This document shows, piece after piece, positions 37,291-47,287 of a stretch of 64,000 bases of DNA; the stretch's first letter is position 1, and every line of letters begins with the position of its first letter. The notes beneath the pieces are model-generated. The model was not told the DNA's origin. It saw only the letters and a program-made list of their open reading frames with translations, and made no database searches. Made by a program: the position numbers and the translations under genes. This DNA comes from Thermofilaceae archaeon (GTDB taxonomy: Archaea > Thermoproteota > Thermoprotei > Thermofilales > Thermofilaceae), in NCBI GenBank assembly GCA_038861545.1, contig JAWCCZ010000002.1:64001-128000 (forward strand), in the 5' to 3' direction.

Positions 37291-38169
37291 GTGCTTAGTT
37301 CGAGCGTGAAAGGAGAACGTTTCCTGAACCTGTACTGTTACAATAAAGAGCTACCACTAAACCCGGAAAAGGAACTCTTGAAGGAGGAAGACAAGTATAT
37401 CGCGTACATGTTACGGTACGACAGTATTGGTACCAGGGTGCCAGCGCTCCTCGCCTTACCTAGAGGGGAGGGGCCTCATCCCTGTCTCGTCTTCCTCCAT
37501 GGTCATGGTGGGAGAAAGGAGGATGGGTTATACGTGGCTGAAGCTGTTTCGCCTAGGGGCTACGCCGTTTTCTCGATAGACGCTCCCTGCCACGGAGAGA
37601 GAGGAGATCCAAGCGAGTATTTCAACCCAGACTTAGAGAAACTGAAGGGGAACTTTATACAGACGGTGCTGGACCTAATGAGAGGCTTAGACTATATTGA
37701 AAGCCTCAAGGAGGTGGATTCCAGCAGGATAGGTTACCTTGGCGGGAGTATGGGCGGGATACTTGGAGCCCTCTTCACCAGCCTAGATACTCGAGTTAAG
37801 GCTTCAGTAATACTAGTCGGCGGTGGCGACCTACCCCTGTTGCTGTGGCTCAGCAAGCACCCAGCAGCAGAGCGAATTAGGAAAAGAATAACTAGCATGG
37901 GGCTAAGCTATGAGCAAATGGCCGAAATAACTGCTCCAGGGGATCCGCTGAACTTTATCCACCTTCACTCTCCACGGCCAATTCAGTTCCACTGTGGAAG
38001 ATACGACGAGATAGTGCCTGCAGTAACCCAGAAAAAGCTGGTTGAAGCTGCTGGGGAACCGAAAGAGGTACACTGGTATGATGCTGGGCACGCACTCCCC
38101 CTTGAAGCAGTTTCTAAGAGGGTCCTCGAATTCTTTGAGCAATACTTAAAACCTTTAAAATTGGAGTAG
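37291..38169 (+). CDS. Alpha/beta hydrolase (esterase/thioesterase-like)
   Basis: FLHGHGG, GGSMGG nucleophile elbow, GRYDEIVP, AGH. Confidence 0.88.
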   Translation: MLSSSVKGERFLNLYCYNKELPLNPEKELLKEEDKYIAYMLRYDSIGTRVPALLALPRGEGPHPCLVFLHGHGGRKEDGLYVAEAVSPRGYAVFSIDAPCHGERGDPSEYFNPDLEKLKGNFIQTVLDLMRGLDYIESLKEVDSSRIGYLGGSMGGILGALFTSLDTRVKASVILVGGGDLPLLLWLSKHPAAERIRKRITSMGLSYEQMAEITAPGDPLNFIHLHSPRPIQFHCGRYDEIVPAVTQKKLVEAAGEPKEVHWYDAGHALPLEAVSKRVLEFFEQYLKPLKLE

Positions 38170-38435: not shown

Positions 38436-39434
38436 TTAAATATCTAGGTAGCTGTGCTCTCTATACCATTCTATAGTCTCGCTTAATCCGTTGCGTAAAT
38501 CATACTTCGGCTTGTAGCCTAGTTCTCTTTTCGCTTTCTCAACACTGTAAGCCCTGTCGGTAGTGACGGAGTCGACCAGCGCGGTACGGTGCATTAAGTT
38601 ACCCTCTCCGGTTGCTAGGTCGTAGAGTTCAAGGGGGGCTAAGAGCAGCTTCGCGAACGCTGGGGGCAGCCTTACGCGTGGCGGCCCTTTACGGGATATC
38701 TCGTGGAGGATCTGATAGACTTGGTTGTACGTATACCATTTGTCTTCACTTATAATGTAAACCTGGTTTACAGCCACATCCTTTTCTAAAGCAAGTACGA
38801 AGCCTTGCACTATATCTTTGACGTGAGCGAACTGTACAAGGTTTTCCCCCGAACCTATTTTGACCTTACTCGCTAAGCCCCCTTTAACGTAGCTTGTTAT
38901 GAACCAATAAGAGACGTCGTCGACATTCCTTGGCCCGTATATCCCTGAAGGCCTAATGATCGTATACTCTAGCCCGTTCCCGGCGAGACTTTCAACGGTT
39001 TTCTCTGCTCTAGCCTTCGACTTCCCGTACTCGAATTGCGGGTTTAGTGGAGCATATTCATCGCCGGGCGGGTTTTTAACGGGGCCTATGGCTTCCGTGC
39101 TACTGCAATATATGAAACGCTTAACGCCGTTGTCGAGCGCTGCGCGCGCCGTCCACTCAGTACCCTTCACGTTTACGAGTTCATAAAGCCCTTTCTTTCC
39201 GAAGAACGTGTAGTACGCCGCTAAGTGTACTACGGAATCTACACCCTTCGTCGCGGGACCGAGGGTTTCAGGCCTTGTCACATCGCCGACTACTAGCTCG
39301 ACTCCCAGTTCTCTCAGGAGTCTTGTGTCACTTGTCCTGCGTACAAGGGCTCTAACAGAGTAGCCCCTGCTAATGAGCTCCTCTGAAAGATGGCCGCCGA
39401 GGAAACCCGATGCTCCTGTAACTAGGATTTTCAA
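38436..39434 (-). CDS. Extended SDR, NAD-dependent epimerase/dehydratase (3beta-HSD-like)
   Basis: TGASGFLG, CSSTEA, YGKSK, IRPSGIYGP; TTGA overlap with luxC stop. Confidence 0.9.
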   Translation of the reverse strand: MKILVTGASGFLGGHLSEELISRGYSVRALVRRTSDTRLLRELGVELVVGDVTRPETLGPATKGVDSVVHLAAYYTFFGKKGLYELVNVKGTEWTARAALDNGVKRFIYCSSTEAIGPVKNPPGDEYAPLNPQFEYGKSKARAEKTVESLAGNGLEYTIIRPSGIYGPRNVDDVSYWFITSYVKGGLASKVKIGSGENLVQFAHVKDIVQGFVLALEKDVAVNQVYIISEDKWYTYNQVYQILHEISRKGPPRVRLPPAFAKLLLAPLELYDLATGEGNLMHRTALVDSVTTDRAYSVEKAKRELGYKPKYDLRNGLSETIEWYREHSYLDI

Positions 39435-40870
39435 CTTGACCTCACCCTGATGTATGCTGTGTAGGAGAGAAGCGGCGCCAGGTAGAACCCATCATAGGGT
39501 TCTACAGGGGTTCTCATGTAGCTCTCGCCTAGCGGCACAACGCGGTAAACACCAAGCAGGTGGAGTTTACCTGTAATCTCCCGAAGCGCTTCCCTGCTAA
39601 CAGCTACGGAAAGTGTTTGAACCCTATCTACGCCTATGTAAGCTGGATTCTTTGGTAAGTTCCTAGCCAACTCCATAGCCTCACCCAGCGACTCTACGAC
39701 TATAATTTCGAGGAACCTCCCCCTAGCGTGGAGTGGGATAATCGCGTTCTGCGGGAGCAAGCCGAGAGCGGATTTCCCCCTGTTGAGTACAACTGTCCAC
39801 GGGTTGCGGGGATCATTACTAGCGTAAACCTTAGCGCCCACGAGCTCTAGGCTCCTGCGTAAAACGAATAAGGGATAGGGGATGCTCTCCATGGTCAGCG
39901 GGTACTCCCTGCCCACTCTGTCGAGCGCCCCGCTAAGGGTGCCAGCGAACTCCAGGGCATCCCCATAGGAGCCGATGAAAGCCGCTTGAGTTGGGCTGCT
40001 GCAGAGCTGCTGCTCATAGAGGATCATTTCGAGCGCGAGCCTCTCTGCAACTTCTTTAGTCGCGTTTTCCGAGTCTATTACCGCGAAACCCGTCATAGGC
40101 CCGTTAACAACGAGCTTCGGGTGATGAGGGTTAAGCGACACAGCGCGGGTTATTACCGTCCTGCCAGGCTCTCCGCCCCAGTAGTTCACCACGCCTAACG
40201 GGGCTTTCTCAAGCATGCCCCGGAAGGTTTCGCTCTCGTGGGTGAAGTAGCTTACTAATAGAGCTTGTCTGATGAAGTTGTCCTCTGGTAGGTTTTCGAG
40301 CTCGCTGTAAACCTCCTTCACTGCCCTGAAGTTTGTCAGAGAGGGTCTAAGAACTGTAAAGTTGCCGATACTCAGCGAAATAGTCGCAGGTATAAGCGGT
40401 GGGATTAGAGAGTTACCTGAACCTATTACAAGAATCGGACCAGCCGGTAAGTTCCTGATGTACTCGCCTGGAACCACCTCTACAGGCTCCTCTAAGCTTT
40501 TCGAGCCGCCTATGAGCGTCGAGTCGAACAGTTTACGTATATTCTGTGGGTTAAGCACCTCCCCTGCGAGCCTCATTTCCAACTCTATCAGCGCTGAGCT
40601 GTAACCTGTAGCTTTGACTAGTTCCTCCTTCACCCAATCCAGCTTCCCAGCTTCAAGCTTCTCCCTCCATACATCTCCGAGAAGCTGTACAACTCTTAAC
40701 CTCTCCATTAAGGGTATGTTTGAGAGATTCTGCTGAAAATTCACGGCTTTGCCGAGTAAAGAGAAGATCCAGTCGTACTTAGGCTCGTAAAAGCTTAAAC
40801 CCTTGATAGCGACAGGGTTCAGATCCCCCTCCCTAACCCCCGGGTATAGGGGCGTAACTCCGCTGCTCAT
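39431..40870 (-). CDS. luxC: LuxC-like acyl-CoA/acyl-protein reductase
   Basis: ALDH-fold motifs IGSGNS, WGGE, YEQQLCSSP; ATGA overlap with luxE stop at 40867-40870. Confidence 0.8.
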   Translation of the reverse strand: MSSGVTPLYPGVREGDLNPVAIKGLSFYEPKYDWIFSLLGKAVNFQQNLSNIPLMERLRVVQLLGDVWREKLEAGKLDWVKEELVKATGYSSALIELEMRLAGEVLNPQNIRKLFDSTLIGGSKSLEEPVEVVPGEYIRNLPAGPILVIGSGNSLIPPLIPATISLSIGNFTVLRPSLTNFRAVKEVYSELENLPEDNFIRQALLVSYFTHESETFRGMLEKAPLGVVNYWGGEPGRTVITRAVSLNPHHPKLVVNGPMTGFAVIDSENATKEVAERLALEMILYEQQLCSSPTQAAFIGSYGDALEFAGTLSGALDRVGREYPLTMESIPYPLFVLRRSLELVGAKVYASNDPRNPWTVVLNRGKSALGLLPQNAIIPLHARGRFLEIIVVESLGEAMELARNLPKNPAYIGVDRVQTLSVAVSREALREITGKLHLLGVYRVVPLGESYMRTPVEPYDGFYLAPLLSYTAYIRVRSS

Positions 40871-42153
40871 CGCACGGCGGCACCTTTGTACATAAGCTCC
40901 TCGAGCGTGCCCCCGCACGCTCTTTGCAAGCTCCACCCCTCCTCCTCTGTCAGCCTTCTGATGTACACGAACTCCCTGCCGTAGTACCGCTCAGATGGAA
41001 CCTGTTTTACCACGTCACCCGGAATGAAGACCTCAAGCCAGGATATAGCTAAGGGGTCAAATATCGCTAAGAGGCCCTCCTTGTTGAACTCGTTCATGGG
41101 TTTGTAGGTCCGTGGGTCAAGCAGGAAAACCTCCTGTAGCGGGTGGGGGATTTTATGCATGACACCATACTTGTCGAGGAGTGCTGTAAGCGTTTCAGTC
41201 ATACCCAGCACGTCCATGAAGGGGACCGGTACCTCATTGCCAGTAGCCGCGTCTTCCGCCCTGAAAACCTTCCTCGCCTCTTTAACGATAACATCGTACT
41301 CCGGGATTTGGAAGCCCTTAGCGCCGCCACCTGTTACTACAACGCCACCTCTCCCCAAATTGATGGGCGGAGCTCCTGTGAGGAGTTTATACAGCGTTTT
41401 TTTGAGCAAGTTTAAACTTCCAAACTGTTCAGCGACGAGGTGAACGCCGGCTGGAGCCGAGAAGAAAAGTTTCGGCTCATCCCTGCTTTTAACGAACTCC
41501 AGTATCCTCTTCCTGTTAGGGACCAACCTTTTCCACGTTGGACCTCCACTGGAGTCCTGGACAAAATCCATGCCGTAAAGCAGTTTTATACCTTTGTACT
41601 GGAGTGCAAGGTCTACGAATGCTACGAAGTTTAGTTGGTTTCTCAGCTCCTCGGCTGCTAGGAAGAGGGCTAAGCCCTCCTTCGGCTTAAGAACGTTGCC
41701 GTAAACGTACTCAAAGAGGTTCGCATTAGCTACGGTCATCGCTACAAGCTCTAACGGGCTTCTGTACACTTTAACGGGATCTTTTCCGCTAGTACCGCTT
41801 GAACGGAACGTAAAACCCTCCTCGTCCCTGCCGGGTAAAAGGAACTTTGTGAGGCCTTCGCCTCTCAGCATATCTGAGGGCACGGCCAGTTTAGCTAGAT
41901 CTTCGAGCTCGGCTGCTTTAGGGTCAACGCCCTGCGTTTCGAGAAGCTTCTCATAAAACTCGCTGTTCCTGATAAAAAACTCCAATCCGCTCCTCAGGAG
42001 ATCCCTCCTAAGCTTTGAAAGGTAATCAGGCGATTTTTCGAAAAGGCCTCTATCTTGAGCCAGTTCTACTAGCTTTTTCACGTGGGGGTCGTTTAAAAAC
42101 TTGCTTTCCTGAGATCTCTGAGCTAATACCTCAAATGAGGGAAGTTTCTCCAT
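40867..42153 (-). CDS. luxE: LuxE-like acyl-protein synthetase
   Basis: FRSSGTSG, TGGGAKG, DVLGMTE, GLLAIFDP, PGDVV, C-terminal RACG. Confidence 0.8.
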   Translation of the reverse strand: MEKLPSFEVLAQRSQESKFLNDPHVKKLVELAQDRGLFEKSPDYLSKLRRDLLRSGLEFFIRNSEFYEKLLETQGVDPKAAELEDLAKLAVPSDMLRGEGLTKFLLPGRDEEGFTFRSSGTSGKDPVKVYRSPLELVAMTVANANLFEYVYGNVLKPKEGLALFLAAEELRNQLNFVAFVDLALQYKGIKLLYGMDFVQDSSGGPTWKRLVPNRKRILEFVKSRDEPKLFFSAPAGVHLVAEQFGSLNLLKKTLYKLLTGAPPINLGRGGVVVTGGGAKGFQIPEYDVIVKEARKVFRAEDAATGNEVPVPFMDVLGMTETLTALLDKYGVMHKIPHPLQEVFLLDPRTYKPMNEFNKEGLLAIFDPLAISWLEVFIPGDVVKQVPSERYYGREFVYIRRLTEEEGWSLQRACGGTLEELMYKGAAVR

Positions 42154-42199
42154 AATGTTCGGGCTTTACTCTTTGGTTAAATAAATTTCGTTTTTTGAG

Positions 42200-42655
42200 A
42201 ATCTTCTTGCTCTAAAGCGGAGGTAAAGGTCCTACTTTTTCAAGCTGAAGATAGCCATCCGCTTTTCAATGCAAGAGCTCAAGGCCAGCTACTTCAAGTT
42301 TCTATGTCGAAGCCCATGTGAAAAGTATTAGTGACGGGTAAGCACCCAATTCCCCCTGGTGAAAAACGCCGAACATGAAGATAATGCATCTCAAAGTGCG
42401 CATTGTATAGCTTAAATCAGAGACTAGATCTCGACAAATAATTAGTTTTACACCTCCTGAAATCCTCGGAGACTCCGATGAGCAGGAAAAGTAGAGCCGC
42501 TGCCGGGCAAGAGTTTGCAAGCATGAAGGCACTAGCGGTGTACCCCTGTTTTCCCTCGGTTTTACCGATCCCTAAGCCTTCGCCCATAGACCGGCTCAGC
42601 CCGAAGGACTTCAGCAATACATTCCGAGACCTTCTTGCTTGCTTTACCCCCACCC
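42200..42655 (-). pseudogene. Degraded ORF of unknown family
   Basis: TATA-like ttaatataa upstream; protein-like pieces in alternating frames (GGKASKKVSECIAEVLRAEPVYGRRL; TASAFMLANSCPAAALLFLLIG; ELGAYPSLILFTWAST*KLEVAGLELL). Confidence 0.3.
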
Positions 42656-42923
42656 GGCAAAAATTATATTAAAACAGAGGGTAAAAGTACCTTGTGTTTC
42701 GTATCGAAAGTTTCGGATAAGTTAAGTATTTTCGGTACAATCGCTTGTATATCGTAATTTTCTTTATTTTTATAAAGGGTATTGGAGCGCTCAAGCTGAC
42801 GGCAGCCGATATCGCAAGTCCATACCGGGCTCTCAACCTTTAACTTTAACGCGAGATTATCTAGTGATAATGCACCTGTAGCATTAGAGCAATTCTATGC
42901 ATATAATATCTAGATAGTATGGC

Positions 42924-42950
42924 TAGATTTTTAAGCTAGCTCTTAATCTA
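42924..42950. promoter_or_regulatory. Imperfect palindrome over the vapBC TATA box
   Basis: TAGATT(TTT)AAG-CTAGCT-CTTAATCTA just before the GTG at 42956. Confidence 0.4.
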
Positions 42951-42955
42951 TACCT

Positions 42956-43198
42956 GTGGCTAAAATCCAAGTCAACCTGAAATTGGAGCAGAAGCTCGTA
43001 GAGGAGGTGGAGAAACTGGTTAGTGAGGGCTATTTTCCGTCAAAAACTGAGGCTTTCACTCAAGCTCTCAAGATGCTTGTCAGAAAGTACAAGGTTGATG
43101 AGATGAAAAGGAAGTTTGATAAAATAAGAGAAGGCACTGAGTCTTTGCCAAGCGTCTCGTTAGCTGTCATTGATTCCCACGAGGAAGAAGATGTTTAG
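42956..43198 (+). CDS. vapB: RHH antitoxin (VapB-like)
   Basis: QVNLKLEQKLVEEVEKLVSEGYFPSKTEAFTQAL; overlaps PIN gene. Confidence 0.85.
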   Translation: MAKIQVNLKLEQKLVEEVEKLVSEGYFPSKTEAFTQALKMLVRKYKVDEMKRKFDKIREGTESLPSVSLAVIDSHEEEDV

Positions 43199-43649
43199 TG
43201 AGTTAATTTTGGACGCCAGTGTGCTTGTGAAGTGGTTTAAGAGAGGAGAGGATTACGAGGAAGAAGCTTTACAGCTATTTGATGATGTGTTAGCCGGTAG
43301 AATAGCAGTGGCTTGCTCTGAGTGGGCTCTCCTCGAGATTTTCCGGGGCCTTCGAAAAGCTGGGTTTCCCTCAGCGAAAATAAGTGAAAGTCATGACGTG
43401 TTAAAGGAGCTTGTAGAACTGGATTATCTAGAGCTTGTTCCAGTTTCCGAGGTTTTAGACCATGCTAGAAAACTTATTATTAATTTAAACCTTTACGCTT
43501 CCGATGCTGTACACCTTGCAACCGCGTTAAAACGTGAGAGAAACCTCGTTAGCGAGGACAGGCATCTCTTACGCAGCGATGTGATTCAATATGCGCAGGA
43601 GCACAGGGTTAAGGTTTTTCGACTCATAGATATAAAGACAATGGATTGA
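43191..43649 (+). CDS. vapC: PIN domain toxin (VapC)
   Basis: ILDASVLVKW, LLE, YASDAVHLATA, LVSED; ATG at 43191. Confidence 0.9.
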   Translation: MFSELILDASVLVKWFKRGEDYEEEALQLFDDVLAGRIAVACSEWALLEIFRGLRKAGFPSAKISESHDVLKELVELDYLELVPVSEVLDHARKLIINLNLYASDAVHLATALKRERNLVSEDRHLLRSDVIQYAQEHRVKVFRLIDIKTMD

Positions 43650-43801: not shown

Positions 43802-44725
43802 ATGAAGACAGCAGTTGTTAGATCCTATGGTTTGATAGCAGCCGTGGTAACTCCGATGAACGGGAAGTTTGAAATACAATACGAAGAGTTCGAGAAATAT
43901 ATTAAATGGGTCGTGTCGCAGGGAGTGGCTGGAGTGGCGGTAGGAGTTGATACAGGAGAAAGCCAGTTGCTGTACAGGGAAGAGAAACTGGAGCTAGTCC
44001 GTGCTGCGAAGAAAGCGGTAGGCAGCAGCGCGGTTATAGTAGCCGGGTTACAAGTCCACAACACCCTCGAAGCTATAAAGATGGCTGGAGACCTCAGGGG
44101 TGCTGGAGCCGACGCGCTGCTCGTATTCCCACACCCAGCGTTCATTGGAGAGCCCAACGACGATGTAATATATGAGTACCATAAAGCTGTTAACGACGCC
44201 GTCGATATTCCTCTCATTGCATTCAACTTGCAACCAGCGCTCGGCGGTGTAGAGTATAAGCCGGGTGTTCTCAGAAGACTTTCAGGGCTGGAGAACGTGG
44301 CAGCGATAAAGGAAGCATCCTTTGACGCTAGGAAGTTCCTCGACATGGTGCTGGCTGTCGAAAAGCTACCGAGGAAAATTCAAGTGCTCACGGGGAATGA
44401 CAACTTTGTTTACGAGTCGCTCGTCATGGGGGCTGAGGGTGGATTGTTGGGTTTCGGTACAATAGCTGTGAAAGAGCAGGTTGAGATGTTTAACCTGGTT
44501 GAGAAAGAGCGGTATAGAGAAGCTAGGGAGATATGGATGCAGTTGCGGCCGCTGATGGAGGTGGTTTTCGCGCCGCCTGTCCGAAACTACAGGGCTCGCT
44601 TGAAGGAGGCGTTGTGCATGATGGGGATTCTCGAAGCAGCGCATGTACGGCCACCGCTTCTCCCGGTAAGCTCCAGAGAACGTGAGGATCTGAAGCGAGT
44701 GCTCAAGGAGTTGAAAATGGTGTAG
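43802..44725 (+). CDS. DHDPS/NAL family class I aldolase
   Basis: AVVTPM, DTGES, AIKEAS Schiff-base Lys, TGND, VRPPLLP. Confidence 0.88.
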   Translation: MKTAVVRSYGLIAAVVTPMNGKFEIQYEEFEKYIKWVVSQGVAGVAVGVDTGESQLLYREEKLELVRAAKKAVGSSAVIVAGLQVHNTLEAIKMAGDLRGAGADALLVFPHPAFIGEPNDDVIYEYHKAVNDAVDIPLIAFNLQPALGGVEYKPGVLRRLSGLENVAAIKEASFDARKFLDMVLAVEKLPRKIQVLTGNDNFVYESLVMGAEGGLLGFGTIAVKEQVEMFNLVEKERYREAREIWMQLRPLMEVVFAPPVRNYRARLKEALCMMGILEAAHVRPPLLPVSSREREDLKRVLKELKMV

Positions 44726-44747
44726 AAAGGGTCGAGCAGGGGGTTCT

Positions 44748-45953
44748 ATGCTGTCCGCTCAGCTGGATCTTTCCGTAACTGTATTTGGCCGCACAATCCC
44801 CAATCCCCTTATCGTGGCTTCAGGCCCCAACGCTAGGAATGACAACGATATAGTAAGGTGCCTCAGCCGAGGGGCAGCCGGTGTAGTGACTAAGACGATA
44901 ACCTTCGATAGGATGCAGCAGGTGCAACCCAAACCGCGGATGCATATTCTTCTCAAGGACGCGTTCGTAAGCGGAGGCTTTTACTCCTTCTACTCAATAG
45001 ACCTCATGTCCGAGTACCCACCCGAGCAGTGGACCACGATGCTGCGGAGAGCTAGGCTAGAAGCCGAGAAGAAAAAGCTAGAAGGCCTAATTATAGCCAG
45101 TATCGCGGGGAGAAACTATGGGGAGTGGGAACAGCTTACGGAGCTGGTTGCTAGCGCCGAGGTAGATGCAATAGAGACAAACCTTTCATGCCCGCACATC
45201 GAACCGGGCAAGGTGCTTATGGGGAGGGCTGCTGCTACCGATCCGGAGTTGATCAAGGGTATCTTAAGGGTGGTGAAGGACGCGGCGAAAAGCATTCCCG
45301 TTATTGGGAAGATAACTCCTCACGGAGCCAATCCGATTATCATAGCGAAAGCCATGAAGGAGGGGGGTGCGGACGCCGTAGTTTCAACGGCAAGATACCA
45401 GGGATTAATCATAGACGTTGAAACGCTGCAACCCATTGCGTGGGGTGGCTATGGCGGCTACGGTGGGCCTTGGCAATTACCTGTAAGCCTCGCTTGGACG
45501 TCGCAGGTAGCTAGAGAGAACCTTGGAATCCCCATCATAGGCTCAGGGGGTATTTCGAGTGGAGAGGATATAGTCAGGTTCATACTCGTCGGAGCGCACG
45601 CGGTTCAAGCTTGCACGAGCATTCTCCTGCACGGTCCTTCGATTATTGGAAGATTGCTGAACGAGCTGAGGGCTTGGATGGTGAGAAAGGGTTTTACTAG
45701 CTTGAACGAGTTCAGAGGCTTAATGCTGCAGAGGATAAAGAGCTTGGAGCAACTCAACAGAGAGAAAGTATTCCGGGTCGAAGTAAGCACCAACTGCAAG
45801 GCCTGTATGAGATGCGTGGAGGCGTGCCCTTACAAGGCGTTAAAAGCCGAGGGGAAAGCTATTACAGTTGACTGGGAGTGCTGCGATAACTGTGGTCTCT
45901 GCGAGTCAATATGTCCATTCGACGCCATTAAGCTAGCTCCTAGAGGCTGGTAA
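44748..45953 (+). CDS. Dihydropyrimidine dehydrogenase PreA-like FMN enzyme with two 4Fe-4S clusters
   Basis: NPLIVASGP, VTKT, NLSCPH, KITP, GGYGG, GSGGI, VQACT; CKACMRCVEACP and CDNCGLCESICP. Confidence 0.82.
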   Translation: MLSAQLDLSVTVFGRTIPNPLIVASGPNARNDNDIVRCLSRGAAGVVTKTITFDRMQQVQPKPRMHILLKDAFVSGGFYSFYSIDLMSEYPPEQWTTMLRRARLEAEKKKLEGLIIASIAGRNYGEWEQLTELVASAEVDAIETNLSCPHIEPGKVLMGRAAATDPELIKGILRVVKDAAKSIPVIGKITPHGANPIIIAKAMKEGGADAVVSTARYQGLIIDVETLQPIAWGGYGGYGGPWQLPVSLAWTSQVARENLGIPIIGSGGISSGEDIVRFILVGAHAVQACTSILLHGPSIIGRLLNELRAWMVRKGFTSLNEFRGLMLQRIKSLEQLNREKVFRVEVSTNCKACMRCVEACPYKALKAEGKAITVDWECCDNCGLCESICPFDAIKLAPRGW

Positions 45954-46306
45954 GCTAGCTTAAAGCTCAATTAGGATGAATCAGGAAGAATGTAAAACCG
46001 CAGCCCTTTCCCGAACAATTGTTAAATAGGTACTAGCAGCTTCAATCTCCTTCCAGGTAACGTTTCCGGAAACCGTTACTTTTTCCCAAACAGGCTAGAC
46101 TGGAGCTCTTCCCAACCTCAAGCACCTACGCTTCCATACTCTGAGCGCTTGCGTGAGAGATTAGTCCTAAGCGAGTTGACGACGAGCATAGTCAAAGCTT
46201 GCTGCCAGCATTTTGAGTAACTCTCACTCTCGCTACACCAATAAATTATAAAAAAAATATTATGTACACATAATATTATAATGGTTACTTTCCGCCTTTC
46301 TCGCTG

Positions 46307-47287
46307 TTACAGCCATTTTTGGTACTGGGGTCTGGATCCATGAGCTGTCTTCTGTGGCTGTGATGTTGCACCACTGTGCAGGAGCTTATAAGCTGTCAGA
46401 TGCCTTTCAATGTATTGCTGGAAGCTTTCAAAGCCAAGCTCTTTCTGCAGGTCTTCGGTTTTCACATTCTCCACCAAAGGCTCTACGATAAAGAGGGACT
46501 CATCCCCGTATGATTGAACTTTAACTTTGTCGCTGTACCTGCTTGCGATGATGTCCGGTATACTGTAGTTGAAATCGTAGTGGCATACGACGTAGTCTGT
46601 GTTAAGGTCATAATGAATTACATTCACCCAGTAGTCCGTTTGAGCTAGGATGCGTCCGCAGGGGTCTATAATTACTGACTTGTCGGTGCGAACCGATGTA
46701 ACAATATAGTATTTATTGATGCAGGCATAGGCTTGGAGAGGGAAGCCTCCATTGTATGCGGAGACCCAGAACAAGATCTTCACTCCTTTACGACCCAGCT
46801 CGAACCATCCCTCCGGGAAACAGATGTCGAAGCATATCTGGATCCCTACTCGACCTATATCGAGATCGAAGACCGGGTACTCTCTGCCCGATGTTACTCC
46901 ATTCTCGAAGACCGTGTAATCATGCGAGCTAGTTACTGGATGTACTTTGTCGTAGATGCCTACGACCTCTCCATCTCTGCCGATAATAACCGTGGAGTTC
47001 CATACTTTACCCTCCCGCTTAGTTAGCAACGGGCATATGATGTAACAGTTCCCATCGATAGCCTTCCTGGATAAAATTTTAACCGTCGGCCCGTCAAGCT
47101 CCTCTGCAACTTCTTCAGCGTGCTTGTATCTGATGCCGGCTACTGTGAAGGCCTCCGGGAGGCAAACTAAATCTGGTTTCAGCTTCAAACACTGATCGAC
47201 AAGCTTTAGCGCATATCTTCGGTTTTCCTCAATTGTGCCGAAAAACCGGGAAGCAAGGCAGGTGGTAGCTACTCGAGCCCTACCCAT
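46307..47287 (-). CDS. Carbon-nitrogen hydrolase (nitrilase superfamily)
   Basis: LPEAF, YDKVHP, ICFDICFPE triad; C-terminal extension. Confidence 0.88.
   Translation of the reverse strand: MGRARVATTCLASRFFGTIEENRRYALKLVDQCLKLKPDLVCLPEAFTVAGIRYKHAEEVAEELDGPTVKILSRKAIDGNCYIICPLLTKREGKVWNSTVIIGRDGEVVGIYDKVHPVTSSHDYTVFENGVTSGREYPVFDLDIGRVGIQICFDICFPEGWFELGRKGVKILFWVSAYNGGFPLQAYACINKYYIVTSVRTDKSVIIDPCGRILAQTDYWVNVIHYDLNTDYVVCHYDFNYSIPDIIASRYSDKVKVQSYGDESLFIVEPLVENVKTEDLQKELGFESFQQYIERHLTAYKLLHSGATSQPQKTAHGSRPQYQKWL

Follow-up and report, generated by a model that had tools for sequence, protein, structure and literature searches.

What would enzymes of the LuxE and LuxC type do in an archaeon in which no luciferase is found? 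The question is raised by a locus of a Thermofilaceae archaeon (assembly GCA_038861545.1, contig JAWCCZ010000002.1), from which a stretch of 64,000 nt, called the window below, was analyzed; coordinates are positions in the window unless they are given with the number of another locus (L). On the minus strand, between positions 38436 and 42153, three successive co-directional open reading frames (ORFs) encode, in this order, a LuxE-like protein, a LuxC-like protein and a short-chain dehydrogenase/reductase (SDR) of the extended type. The operon is real and well defined, and it is of the LuxCE acid-reductase type. Judging from the sequences and from structural models, we consider it likely that the trio forms one operon for two-step carboxylic acid reduction, from acid to aldehyde and from aldehyde to alcohol.

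The genes are coupled by overlaps of their ends. The LuxE-like gene ends in ...GTG CGA TGA, and its stop TGA (40869-40867) shares bases with the LuxC ATG (40870-40868), forming an ATGA overlap; the LuxC gene ends in ...AGT TGA, with the stop TGA (39433-39431) sharing bases with the TTG start of the SDR (39434-39432), a TTGA overlap. Both overlaps, which a first-pass annotation of the window had described, can be read in the DNA, and the motifs that it listed (SSGTSG, GMTE and a C-terminal Cys, QxxCSSP of LuxC, and an extended SDR) are all present. The longest LuxC ORF spans 39431-40936 (501 aa); because the ATG at 40870 overlaps the LuxE-like stop, the second protein was taken to be 479 aa in length. 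The source assembly (1.63 Mb, 92% complete) contains one LuxE-like copy. No match to the luciferase family PF00296 or to the LuxD family Acyl_transf_2 (PF02273) was found in the whole of it, so that the lack of luxA, luxB and luxD first noted for the window holds for this genome.

Three proteins of the trio

According to Tian et al. 2022 (PMC9157457), LuxE is distinguished by the lack of the C-terminal subdomain of ANL enzymes, in whose place it has a short C-terminal motif; its further traits are the catalytic Lys238, which lies on a GGGWK loop, the paired Arg354 and Arg355, and Cys364, which accepts the acyl group and is located on a short flexible tail. In the archaeal LuxE-like protein we find a P-loop SSGTSG (residues 118-123), GMTE (317-320), PGD (378-380), a loop Lys279 in TGGGAKG, an Arg pair R399/R400 and, 15 residues before the C-terminus, Cys413 (codon 40917-40915) within EEGWxLQRACGGTLEE. 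The three motifs SSGTSG, GMTE and PGD and the residues K279, R399, R400 and Cys413 show no variation, either across 32 homologues from databases or across 34 genomic copies linked to the trio. K279 was equated with the catalytic Lys of LuxE by motif alone, not by superposition, and the Arg pair was aligned by HMMER.

An AlphaFold (AF2) model of the LuxE-like protein, made from the alignment of 32 homologues, has a pLDDT of 86 and a pTM of 0.87, with residues 414-428 below pLDDT 50. Its nearest folds are PaaK-family ligases (Foldseek E 1e-12), and VIA-align superposed it on PaaK1 (2y27) with Z 26.5 and a root-mean-square deviation (rmsd) of 2.9 Å over 314 residues. Residues 34-404 of the model match residues 7-330 only of the 425 residues of PaaK1, and 24 residues remain; because of this coverage, the protein is predicted to lack the ANL C-terminal subdomain. 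LuxE itself (7xc6_E) was not among the top structural matches of the model, which does not count against kinship. By sequence, 7xc6_E is the sole PDB match (E 5e-4 with the single sequence and 1.5e-4 with a 32-sequence profile), consisting of one aligned stretch near each end, in which HMMER pairs 'IRRL...' with 'VRRL...KGC' of LuxE. An exhaustive phmmer search against 1.84 billion representatives retrieved only 52 LuxE-like relatives at E<=0.001; therefore, the common LuxE-type enzymes are not close kin. As judged from motifs and model, the protein has the features by which LuxE is structurally defined, and sequence comparison places it as a remote sister group of LuxE rather than as an equivalog.

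The second protein is clearly a member of the LuxC family. It matches Pfam LuxC (PF05893) with E 1.6e-33 and 116.7 bits (cut-off 21) over profile positions 5-393 of 401, and its PDB match is LuxC 7xc6_A (E 4e-8 by sequence, 2e-18 by profile). Cys290 (numbered from the ATG at 40870; codon 40003-40001), in YEQQLCSSPT, aligns with the catalytic Cys of LuxC (Cys296 in 7xc6 numbering), which lies in a QQxC motif. Cys290 and QQLCxSPT are invariant in 28 LuxC homologues (stretch YxQQLCSSPT). The NCBIfam model of luminescence LuxC (NF052251) gave 46.1 bits, far below its equivalog cut-off of 750. In a remote HMMER alignment that spans only LuxC residues 16-310, the mapped residues of the long, L-shaped hydrophobic cleft that takes a C14 chain correspond to Leu (L107), Leu (W111) and a variable residue or Glu (M114).

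The third protein matches the Pfam families Epimerase (3.4e-42) and 3Beta_HSD (9e-33). It has the motif GASGFLG (GxxGxxG) at residues 7-13, R32-R33-x-S35, S111/S112/T113 and Y136xxxK140. Over 34 orthologues, Ser/Thr at 111-113, Tyr136 and Lys140 are kept, as are Arg at position 32 in 31/34, Lys or Arg at 33 in 22/34 and Ser at 35 in 28/34; the pattern R32-[K/R]-x-S35 after the second strand is one that NADP(H) users typically have. Among PDB sequences, the 'putative oxidoreductase' 3wj7_A matches best, full length at E 3e-41, and the next match stands at 2e-23. We take 3wj7 to be Gox2253 of Gluconobacter oxydans, reportedly described by Yin et al. in 2014 as an NADPH-dependent reductase of C7-C10 aldehydes. 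From these comparisons, the SDR is probably an NADPH-dependent aldehyde reductase.

Linkage and distribution of the genes

The first-pass annotation had pointed to the distribution in archaea as a check, and the trio was indeed found in about 40 distinct archaeal loci from several phyla. The trio is complete, with its order unchanged, in nearly every one of them, and its genes mostly overlap or lie a few bases apart. Across phyla, identity is 52-60% for the LuxE-like protein and the SDR and 40-45% for LuxC.

In three genomes of Methanomethylicia (93-96% complete), the LuxE-like gene is still at its usual place, and there is no LuxC anywhere. Of the 120 columns without variation among the 34 linked copies, these orphans deviate at 3, 11 and 25, and any linked copy deviates at no more than 3 (leave-one-out). 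The worst of them (L027) carries K279R, E320G and C413S and is the only copy with Cys413 lost. Judging from such substitutions, the orphan copies are decaying, as expected if the LuxE-like enzyme is useless without its partners. LuxC and the SDR went missing as a pair in the orphan loci, an indication that their steps are consecutive. In the orphan loci (LuxE-like genes at L021 8235-9503, L024 8597-9859 and L027 8366-9637), LuxC and SDR are cleanly deleted and the neighbours are the same.

Prediction of a complex between the LuxE-like and LuxC proteins gave an ipSAE of 0.71, with 0.00 for the best control, agreement between runs in at least 45% of contacts and a partner pLDDT of at least 81. 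The mark of 0.71 was reached by 58 of 80 solved complexes and by 2 of 110 mismatched pairs. Since a similar complex, 7xc6, has been solved, the prediction may show likeness only. In one distant member the two proteins are naturally fused (884 aa, of which residues 5-384 are LuxE-like and 422-754 form the LuxC domain, and no SDR); a word search for fused or longer forms, which is weak evidence, found none.

The wider family was also seen in other surroundings. The fusion gene (L032 1668-9655) lies on the same strand after genes for a carbamoyltransferase, two unknown proteins and a radical-SAM/SPASM enzyme, a group suggestive of a small biosynthetic cluster. Pairs of more distant LuxE-like and LuxC genes (43% and 32% identity) with no SDR are present at L033 5635-11492, at L034 and on one JGI contig; pairs of the L033 type are flanked by genes for a FIST sensor-domain protein, an unknown protein of 157 aa, a V4R-domain protein and a KaiC-like ATPase, a context that looks like signalling. 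At L030 8386-11106 and in sister loci from its genus, TAG is the stop of the LuxE-like gene and the next codon, in the same frame, is the LuxC start, so that stop read-through would fuse both. Pyrrolysine read-through at a TAG within LuxE-like matches was considered and rejected, the TAG being the LuxE-like stop, with the LuxC start following in frame.

The LuxE-like gene is present in 33 of the 401 genomes sampled from the phylum, concentrated in a few families, and in 5 of 301 Thermoplasmatota genomes, the phylum of the Methanomassiliicoccales genome G401. Among Thermofilaceae, 7/23 genomes and 3/9 genera have the trio, and it is missing from some complete genomes. The trio loci that were fetched come from Thermofilaceae, Desulfurococcaceae-like lineages, Methanomethylicia, Methanomassiliicoccales and one further family (10/14 carriers), and database names add Archaeoglobaceae, Odinarchaeota, Conexivisphaerales and Bathyarchaeota. 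At the DNA level, the trio alone is conserved (70-72%) between Thermofilaceae members, with flanks that differ and lie elsewhere; the synteny comparison with a congener genome gave no match at all. A maximum-likelihood tree recovered every lineage as monophyletic, with Thermofilaceae and the Desulfurococcaceae-like copies as sister groups (96/92); one genome from the same order is placed elsewhere (82/88, which does not exceed the support mark), and deep branches are not resolved. The trio is accessory, not housekeeping. From the distribution, the differing flanks and the tree, it follows that it has mostly been inherited within lineages, with frequent loss and perhaps occasional transfer between lineages.

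Over the roughly 40 loci, no conserved neighbour extends beyond single lineages, and there is no lipid gene among conserved neighbours. In Methanomethylicia, the neighbours are genes for ArsR, thioredoxins and glutaredoxin and a ferredoxin-thioredoxin-reductase-like gene. In Methanomassiliicoccales, they include GrpB and, after the trio, a UbiA prenyltransferase gene and, convergent, a radical-SAM gene; ilvB and ilvC are close by, and the UbiA/radical-SAM pair was located at L007 11772-13696 and L036 12201-14064. The adjacency of ilvB and ilvC is seen in two lineages and could be chance. A ComB-type phosphatase adjoins the trio in one family, and ABC-2 transporters, only 27-32% identical, lie near it in three lineages. 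In one genome, an aldehyde:ferredoxin oxidoreductase is encoded directly 5' of the trio on the same strand (L022 9756-11519), and in a Thermofilum-like genome a Zn-dependent alcohol dehydrogenase gene is divergent from it (L040 10192-11298). These two fit aldehyde and alcohol metabolism, without naming the compound.

Proposed reaction, its alternatives and the substrate

In the proposed reaction, the LuxE-like enzyme would adenylate a free acid with ATP, giving acyl-AMP, and would move the acyl group to its own Cys413 on the flexible C-terminal tail. The tail would then swing into the bound LuxC-like partner and pass the acyl group to Cys290, and reduction of the Cys290 thioester by NADPH would release a free aldehyde, which the NADPH-type SDR would reduce to a primary alcohol. 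Such acid-to-aldehyde-to-alcohol chemistry, already suggested by the first-pass annotation, is well supported: the analysis shows that the proteins belong to the families named, keep the catalytic residues, are encoded by strictly linked genes and are predicted to be in contact. Which way the reaction runs, what the SDR does and all that is said of the substrate below are inferred.

Several points weigh against the proposed pathway. The first-pass annotation had named both proteins after lux families, which the Pfam profile bears out for LuxC and not for the LuxE-like protein: the latter had no Pfam match even at E<=10, scored 17.5 bits (E 0.0016) with the NCBIfam LuxE model (NF052244), whose cut-off is 550 bits, and only 2 of 32 members of its family match Pfam LuxE (PF04443) at E<=0.01. 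The best NCBIfam matches of the SDR (HpnA, SdmB and OleD, all under their cut-offs) are ketoreductase or decarboxylase-type lipid enzymes, not aldehyde reductases; therefore, the SDR could act elsewhere on the substrate. The distant relatives, both the fusion and the pairs in the FIST/V4R/KaiC context, have no SDR, so that in the wider family not every system would include the alcohol step. Finally, a route from ATP to AMP would be costly for energy-limited fermenters.

If the aldehyde were the end product, the SDR would act on another group of the same substrate, by 3-keto/3-hydroxy interconversion or oxidative decarboxylation in the manner of 3beta-HSD, SdmB or OleD, and the aldehyde would go to a transaminase, a condensation or signalling. 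The NCBIfam and Pfam matches of the SDR (HpnA, SdmB, OleD, 3Beta_HSD), the presence of NSDHL (6jkg) among its PDB matches and the members of the wider family that have LuxE and LuxC alone would agree with this. We nevertheless hold it to be improbable: the HpnA, SdmB and OleD matches are far under cut-offs (171 bits for HpnA, TIGR03466, where 367.65 is needed), 3wj7 is by a wide margin the closest solved relative, the SDR was lost along with LuxC in the orphan loci, and no transaminase or other aldehyde-using enzyme was found among conserved neighbours. The opposite direction, in which the SDR would oxidize an alcohol to an aldehyde, LuxC would convert this to an acyl-thioester and the resulting acyl-AMP would yield, with pyrophosphate, acid and ATP, would conserve energy. 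Its appeal is that the carriers are anaerobes, for which an ATP-consuming reduction would presumably be costly, that AMP-forming ligases operate near equilibrium and that aldehyde:ferredoxin oxidoreductase and alcohol dehydrogenase genes lie beside the trio in two lineages. Against such an oxidation, the NADPH-type cofactor motif of the SDR favours reduction, no pyrophosphate-linked gene is found among conserved neighbours, and we know of no LuxE or LuxC enzyme that runs in reverse; we give it very little credence.

That the pair is an ordinary PaaK-type acyl-CoA ligase with a CoA-acylating or oxidative aldehyde dehydrogenase (ALDH) is likewise very unlikely. The nearest folds of the model (PaaK1/2, BT_0428 and 2-hydroxyisobutyryl-CoA ligase, Z 25-26.5), the JGI label 'phenylacetate-CoA ligase' on several LuxE-like members and the use of the term acyl-CoA reductases for LuxC enzymes all speak for it. 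The PaaK C-terminal subdomain, which provides the catalytic Lys and the thioester-forming state, is missing in the model, however, and in its stead there are a LuxE-type loop Lys and tail Cys, both invariant; LuxE is the sole PDB relative detectable by sequence, and the partner belongs to the LuxC family, which is without the hydrolytic Glu of oxidative ALDHs (PMC12041015). The missing subdomain and the tail Cys contradict this case, which the first-pass annotation had itself put up against its proposal. Salvage of the halves of oxidised thiamine, for which an analogy is the only argument, deserves next to no credence. No Rfam family, and hence no riboswitch, reached the gathering score, whether in the window or in five related loci, and the 900 nt upstream (42100-43000) gave no match at E<=1 either; the thiamine-phosphate synthases ThiE (PF02581) and ThiN (PF10120) were not found in the source genome, where ThiM was matched only in part, inside a 552-aa ORF, and the ThiD model also only in part. 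The common LuxE-type enzymes are, moreover, not close kin of this family.

Returning to two-step acid reduction, the substrate is probably one specific compound common to all carriers, because identity across phyla is so high. By rough estimate and in decreasing order of probability, a lipid-like acid, fatty or isoprenoid, is a tentative choice; a fermentation-type aliphatic or aryl acid may be considered; a polar metabolite or cofactor precursor is doubtful and any other compound more doubtful still. The first-pass annotation had linked lipid salvage to the lipid requirement of Thermofilum pendens, a link that found no support: HMG-CoA reductase is present in 23/23 Thermofilaceae genomes and the trio in 7/23, and conserved neighbours include no lipid gene. 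On the other suggestions of that annotation, a surface modification or a signal, the evidence speaks neither way. By the same count, compensation for a missing isoprenoid synthesis (mevalonate pathway) is not supported. A lipid-type substrate is still among the candidates. A narrower version, to which we assign a small probability, is that the trio is a heat-stable reductase of isoprenoid acids (phytanic acid, biphytanic diacids) to isoprenoid alcohols, by which anaerobic archaea would re-use relic membrane lipids from their surroundings. If true, this would give an enzymatic basis to the lipid recycling that has been proposed for sediment and hot-spring archaea. Because the acyl group would be carried covalently on Cys413 and Cys290, mass spectrometry applied to the enzymes could read the substrate directly.

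Should this chemistry hold, the trio would be an archaeal carboxylic-acid reductase system that needs no phosphopantetheine carrier, found in Thermofilaceae, Desulfurococcaceae-like, Methanomethylicia, Methanomassiliicoccales, Bathyarchaeia-like, Archaeoglobaceae and Odinarchaeota genomes, and would mark a part of the metabolism of anaerobic archaea that is strongly conserved. Acid reductases that are heat-stable, have two components and come with a matched aldehyde reductase would also be of use as biocatalysts.

Gene layout and known systems

The features of the locus are collected in the table. The A/T-rich element AAATTTATTTAA, found by direct reading, is possibly the TATA box of the operon.

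Table. Features of the trio locus, with positions in the window
Feature	Position	Strand	Remarks
LuxE-like acyl-protein synthetase	40867..42153	-	428 aa; PaaK-fold adenylating N-domain (predicted)
LuxC-family acyl-thioester reductase	39431..40870	-	479 aa from ATG at 40870; PF05893
Extended SDR	38436..39434	-	332 aa, TTG start; Pfam Epimerase
Candidate archaeal TATA-like box, A/T-rich, AAATTTATTTAA	42177..42188	-	24-35 nt 5' of LuxE-like ATG; direct reading

About 800 nt 5' of the operon (42154-42955) contain no ORF of at least 80 aa, no notable repeats and no similarity to related loci. This gap is unusually long for a compact archaeal genome; the matching gap in the 81%-identical relative L001 is about 100 nt. 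It is followed on the plus strand, at 42956-43649, by an overlapping toxin-antitoxin pair of ribbon-helix-helix/VapB-like (80 aa) and PIN/VapC-like (159 aa) proteins, divergent from the operon. Farther on there are a dihydrodipicolinate synthase-family aldolase (43802-44725), a dihydroorotate/dihydropyrimidine-dehydrogenase-like protein with two 4Fe-4S motifs (44748-45953) and, on the minus strand, a carbon-nitrogen hydrolase (46307-47287); the genes at 43802-47287 may serve reductive pyrimidine breakdown or a beta-alanine route. On the other side, convergent to the SDR gene, an alpha/beta hydrolase is encoded at 37291-38169 on the plus strand, and the same protein cluster is at the same place in L001 (11817-12569). 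Since this hydrolase is of the dienelactone-hydrolase/esterase type, it was rejected as a LuxD candidate.

Full-text literature searches found no paper on an archaeal LuxE/LuxC system. What is new here is the feature-by-feature comparison with LuxE, the decaying orphan copies, the isolation of the family and the negative outcome of both the thiamine and the isoprenoid-compensation ideas.

One of the closest known systems is the LuxC-LuxE fatty acid reductase of Photobacterium phosphoreum (7xc6; PMC9157457), likewise a two-protein system with adjacent genes, the contact between the archaeal proteins being predicted. The likeness on the side of LuxE extends to the lack of the ANL C-subdomain, the loop Lys, the RR pair and the acyl-carrying Cys on a flexible tail, and on the side of LuxC to an ALDH-fold reductase with its catalytic Cys in QQxC. 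In contrast to P. phosphoreum LuxE, the archaeal protein has 55 additional residues, carries its Cys at a distance of 13 instead of 9 residues past the RR pair and falls short of the curated LuxE models. Unlike in luminous bacteria, luxAB, luxD and luxG are not found in the source genome, an extended SDR is attached, and the carriers are anaerobic archaea.

The luciferase-free LuxC/LuxE cassettes that are known come from bacteria, where they lie within glycan-modification islands; in Aeromonas flagellar glycosylation islands they are accompanied by an acyl carrier protein (ACP), 3-oxoacyl-ACP reductase, AMP-ligase and glycosyltransferases (PMC7874193). The archaeal trio shares with them the use of LuxE and LuxC as a biosynthetic acyl-reducing module that needs no luciferase, whereas none of these accompanying genes is a conserved neighbour of the trio.

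With PaaK-family AMP-forming ligases (PaaK1 2y27, BT_0428 4r1m and HCL 6hdx), the LuxE-like protein shares the fold of the N-domain (rmsd about 3 Å over 310-325 residues at the Z scores given above), the P-loop and GxTE; it differs from them in having no C-terminal subdomain and, presumably, in using its own Cys rather than CoA as the acyl acceptor. Carboxylic acid reductase (CAR; A-PCP-R) and fungal Lys2 carry out the same net chemistry, in which activation by ATP leads to a thioester that NADPH reduces to an aldehyde; the likeness goes no further than analogy. In CAR, one polypeptide contains both a phosphopantetheine carrier and an R domain of the SDR type, whereas in the archaeal system the carrier would be a protein Cys and the reductase has an ALDH fold; Pfam detected no peptidyl carrier protein (PCP) domain in the three trio proteins. 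Lastly, the archaeal SDR shares GxxGxxG, the Ser/Tyr/Lys set and the NADPH-type basic motif with extended SDRs of the aldehyde-reductase/HpnA/3beta-HSD group, 3wj7 being the closest, and it is distinguished from the HpnA, SdmB and OleD equivalogs by its scores under their cut-offs and by its coupling to the LuxE-like and LuxC genes.

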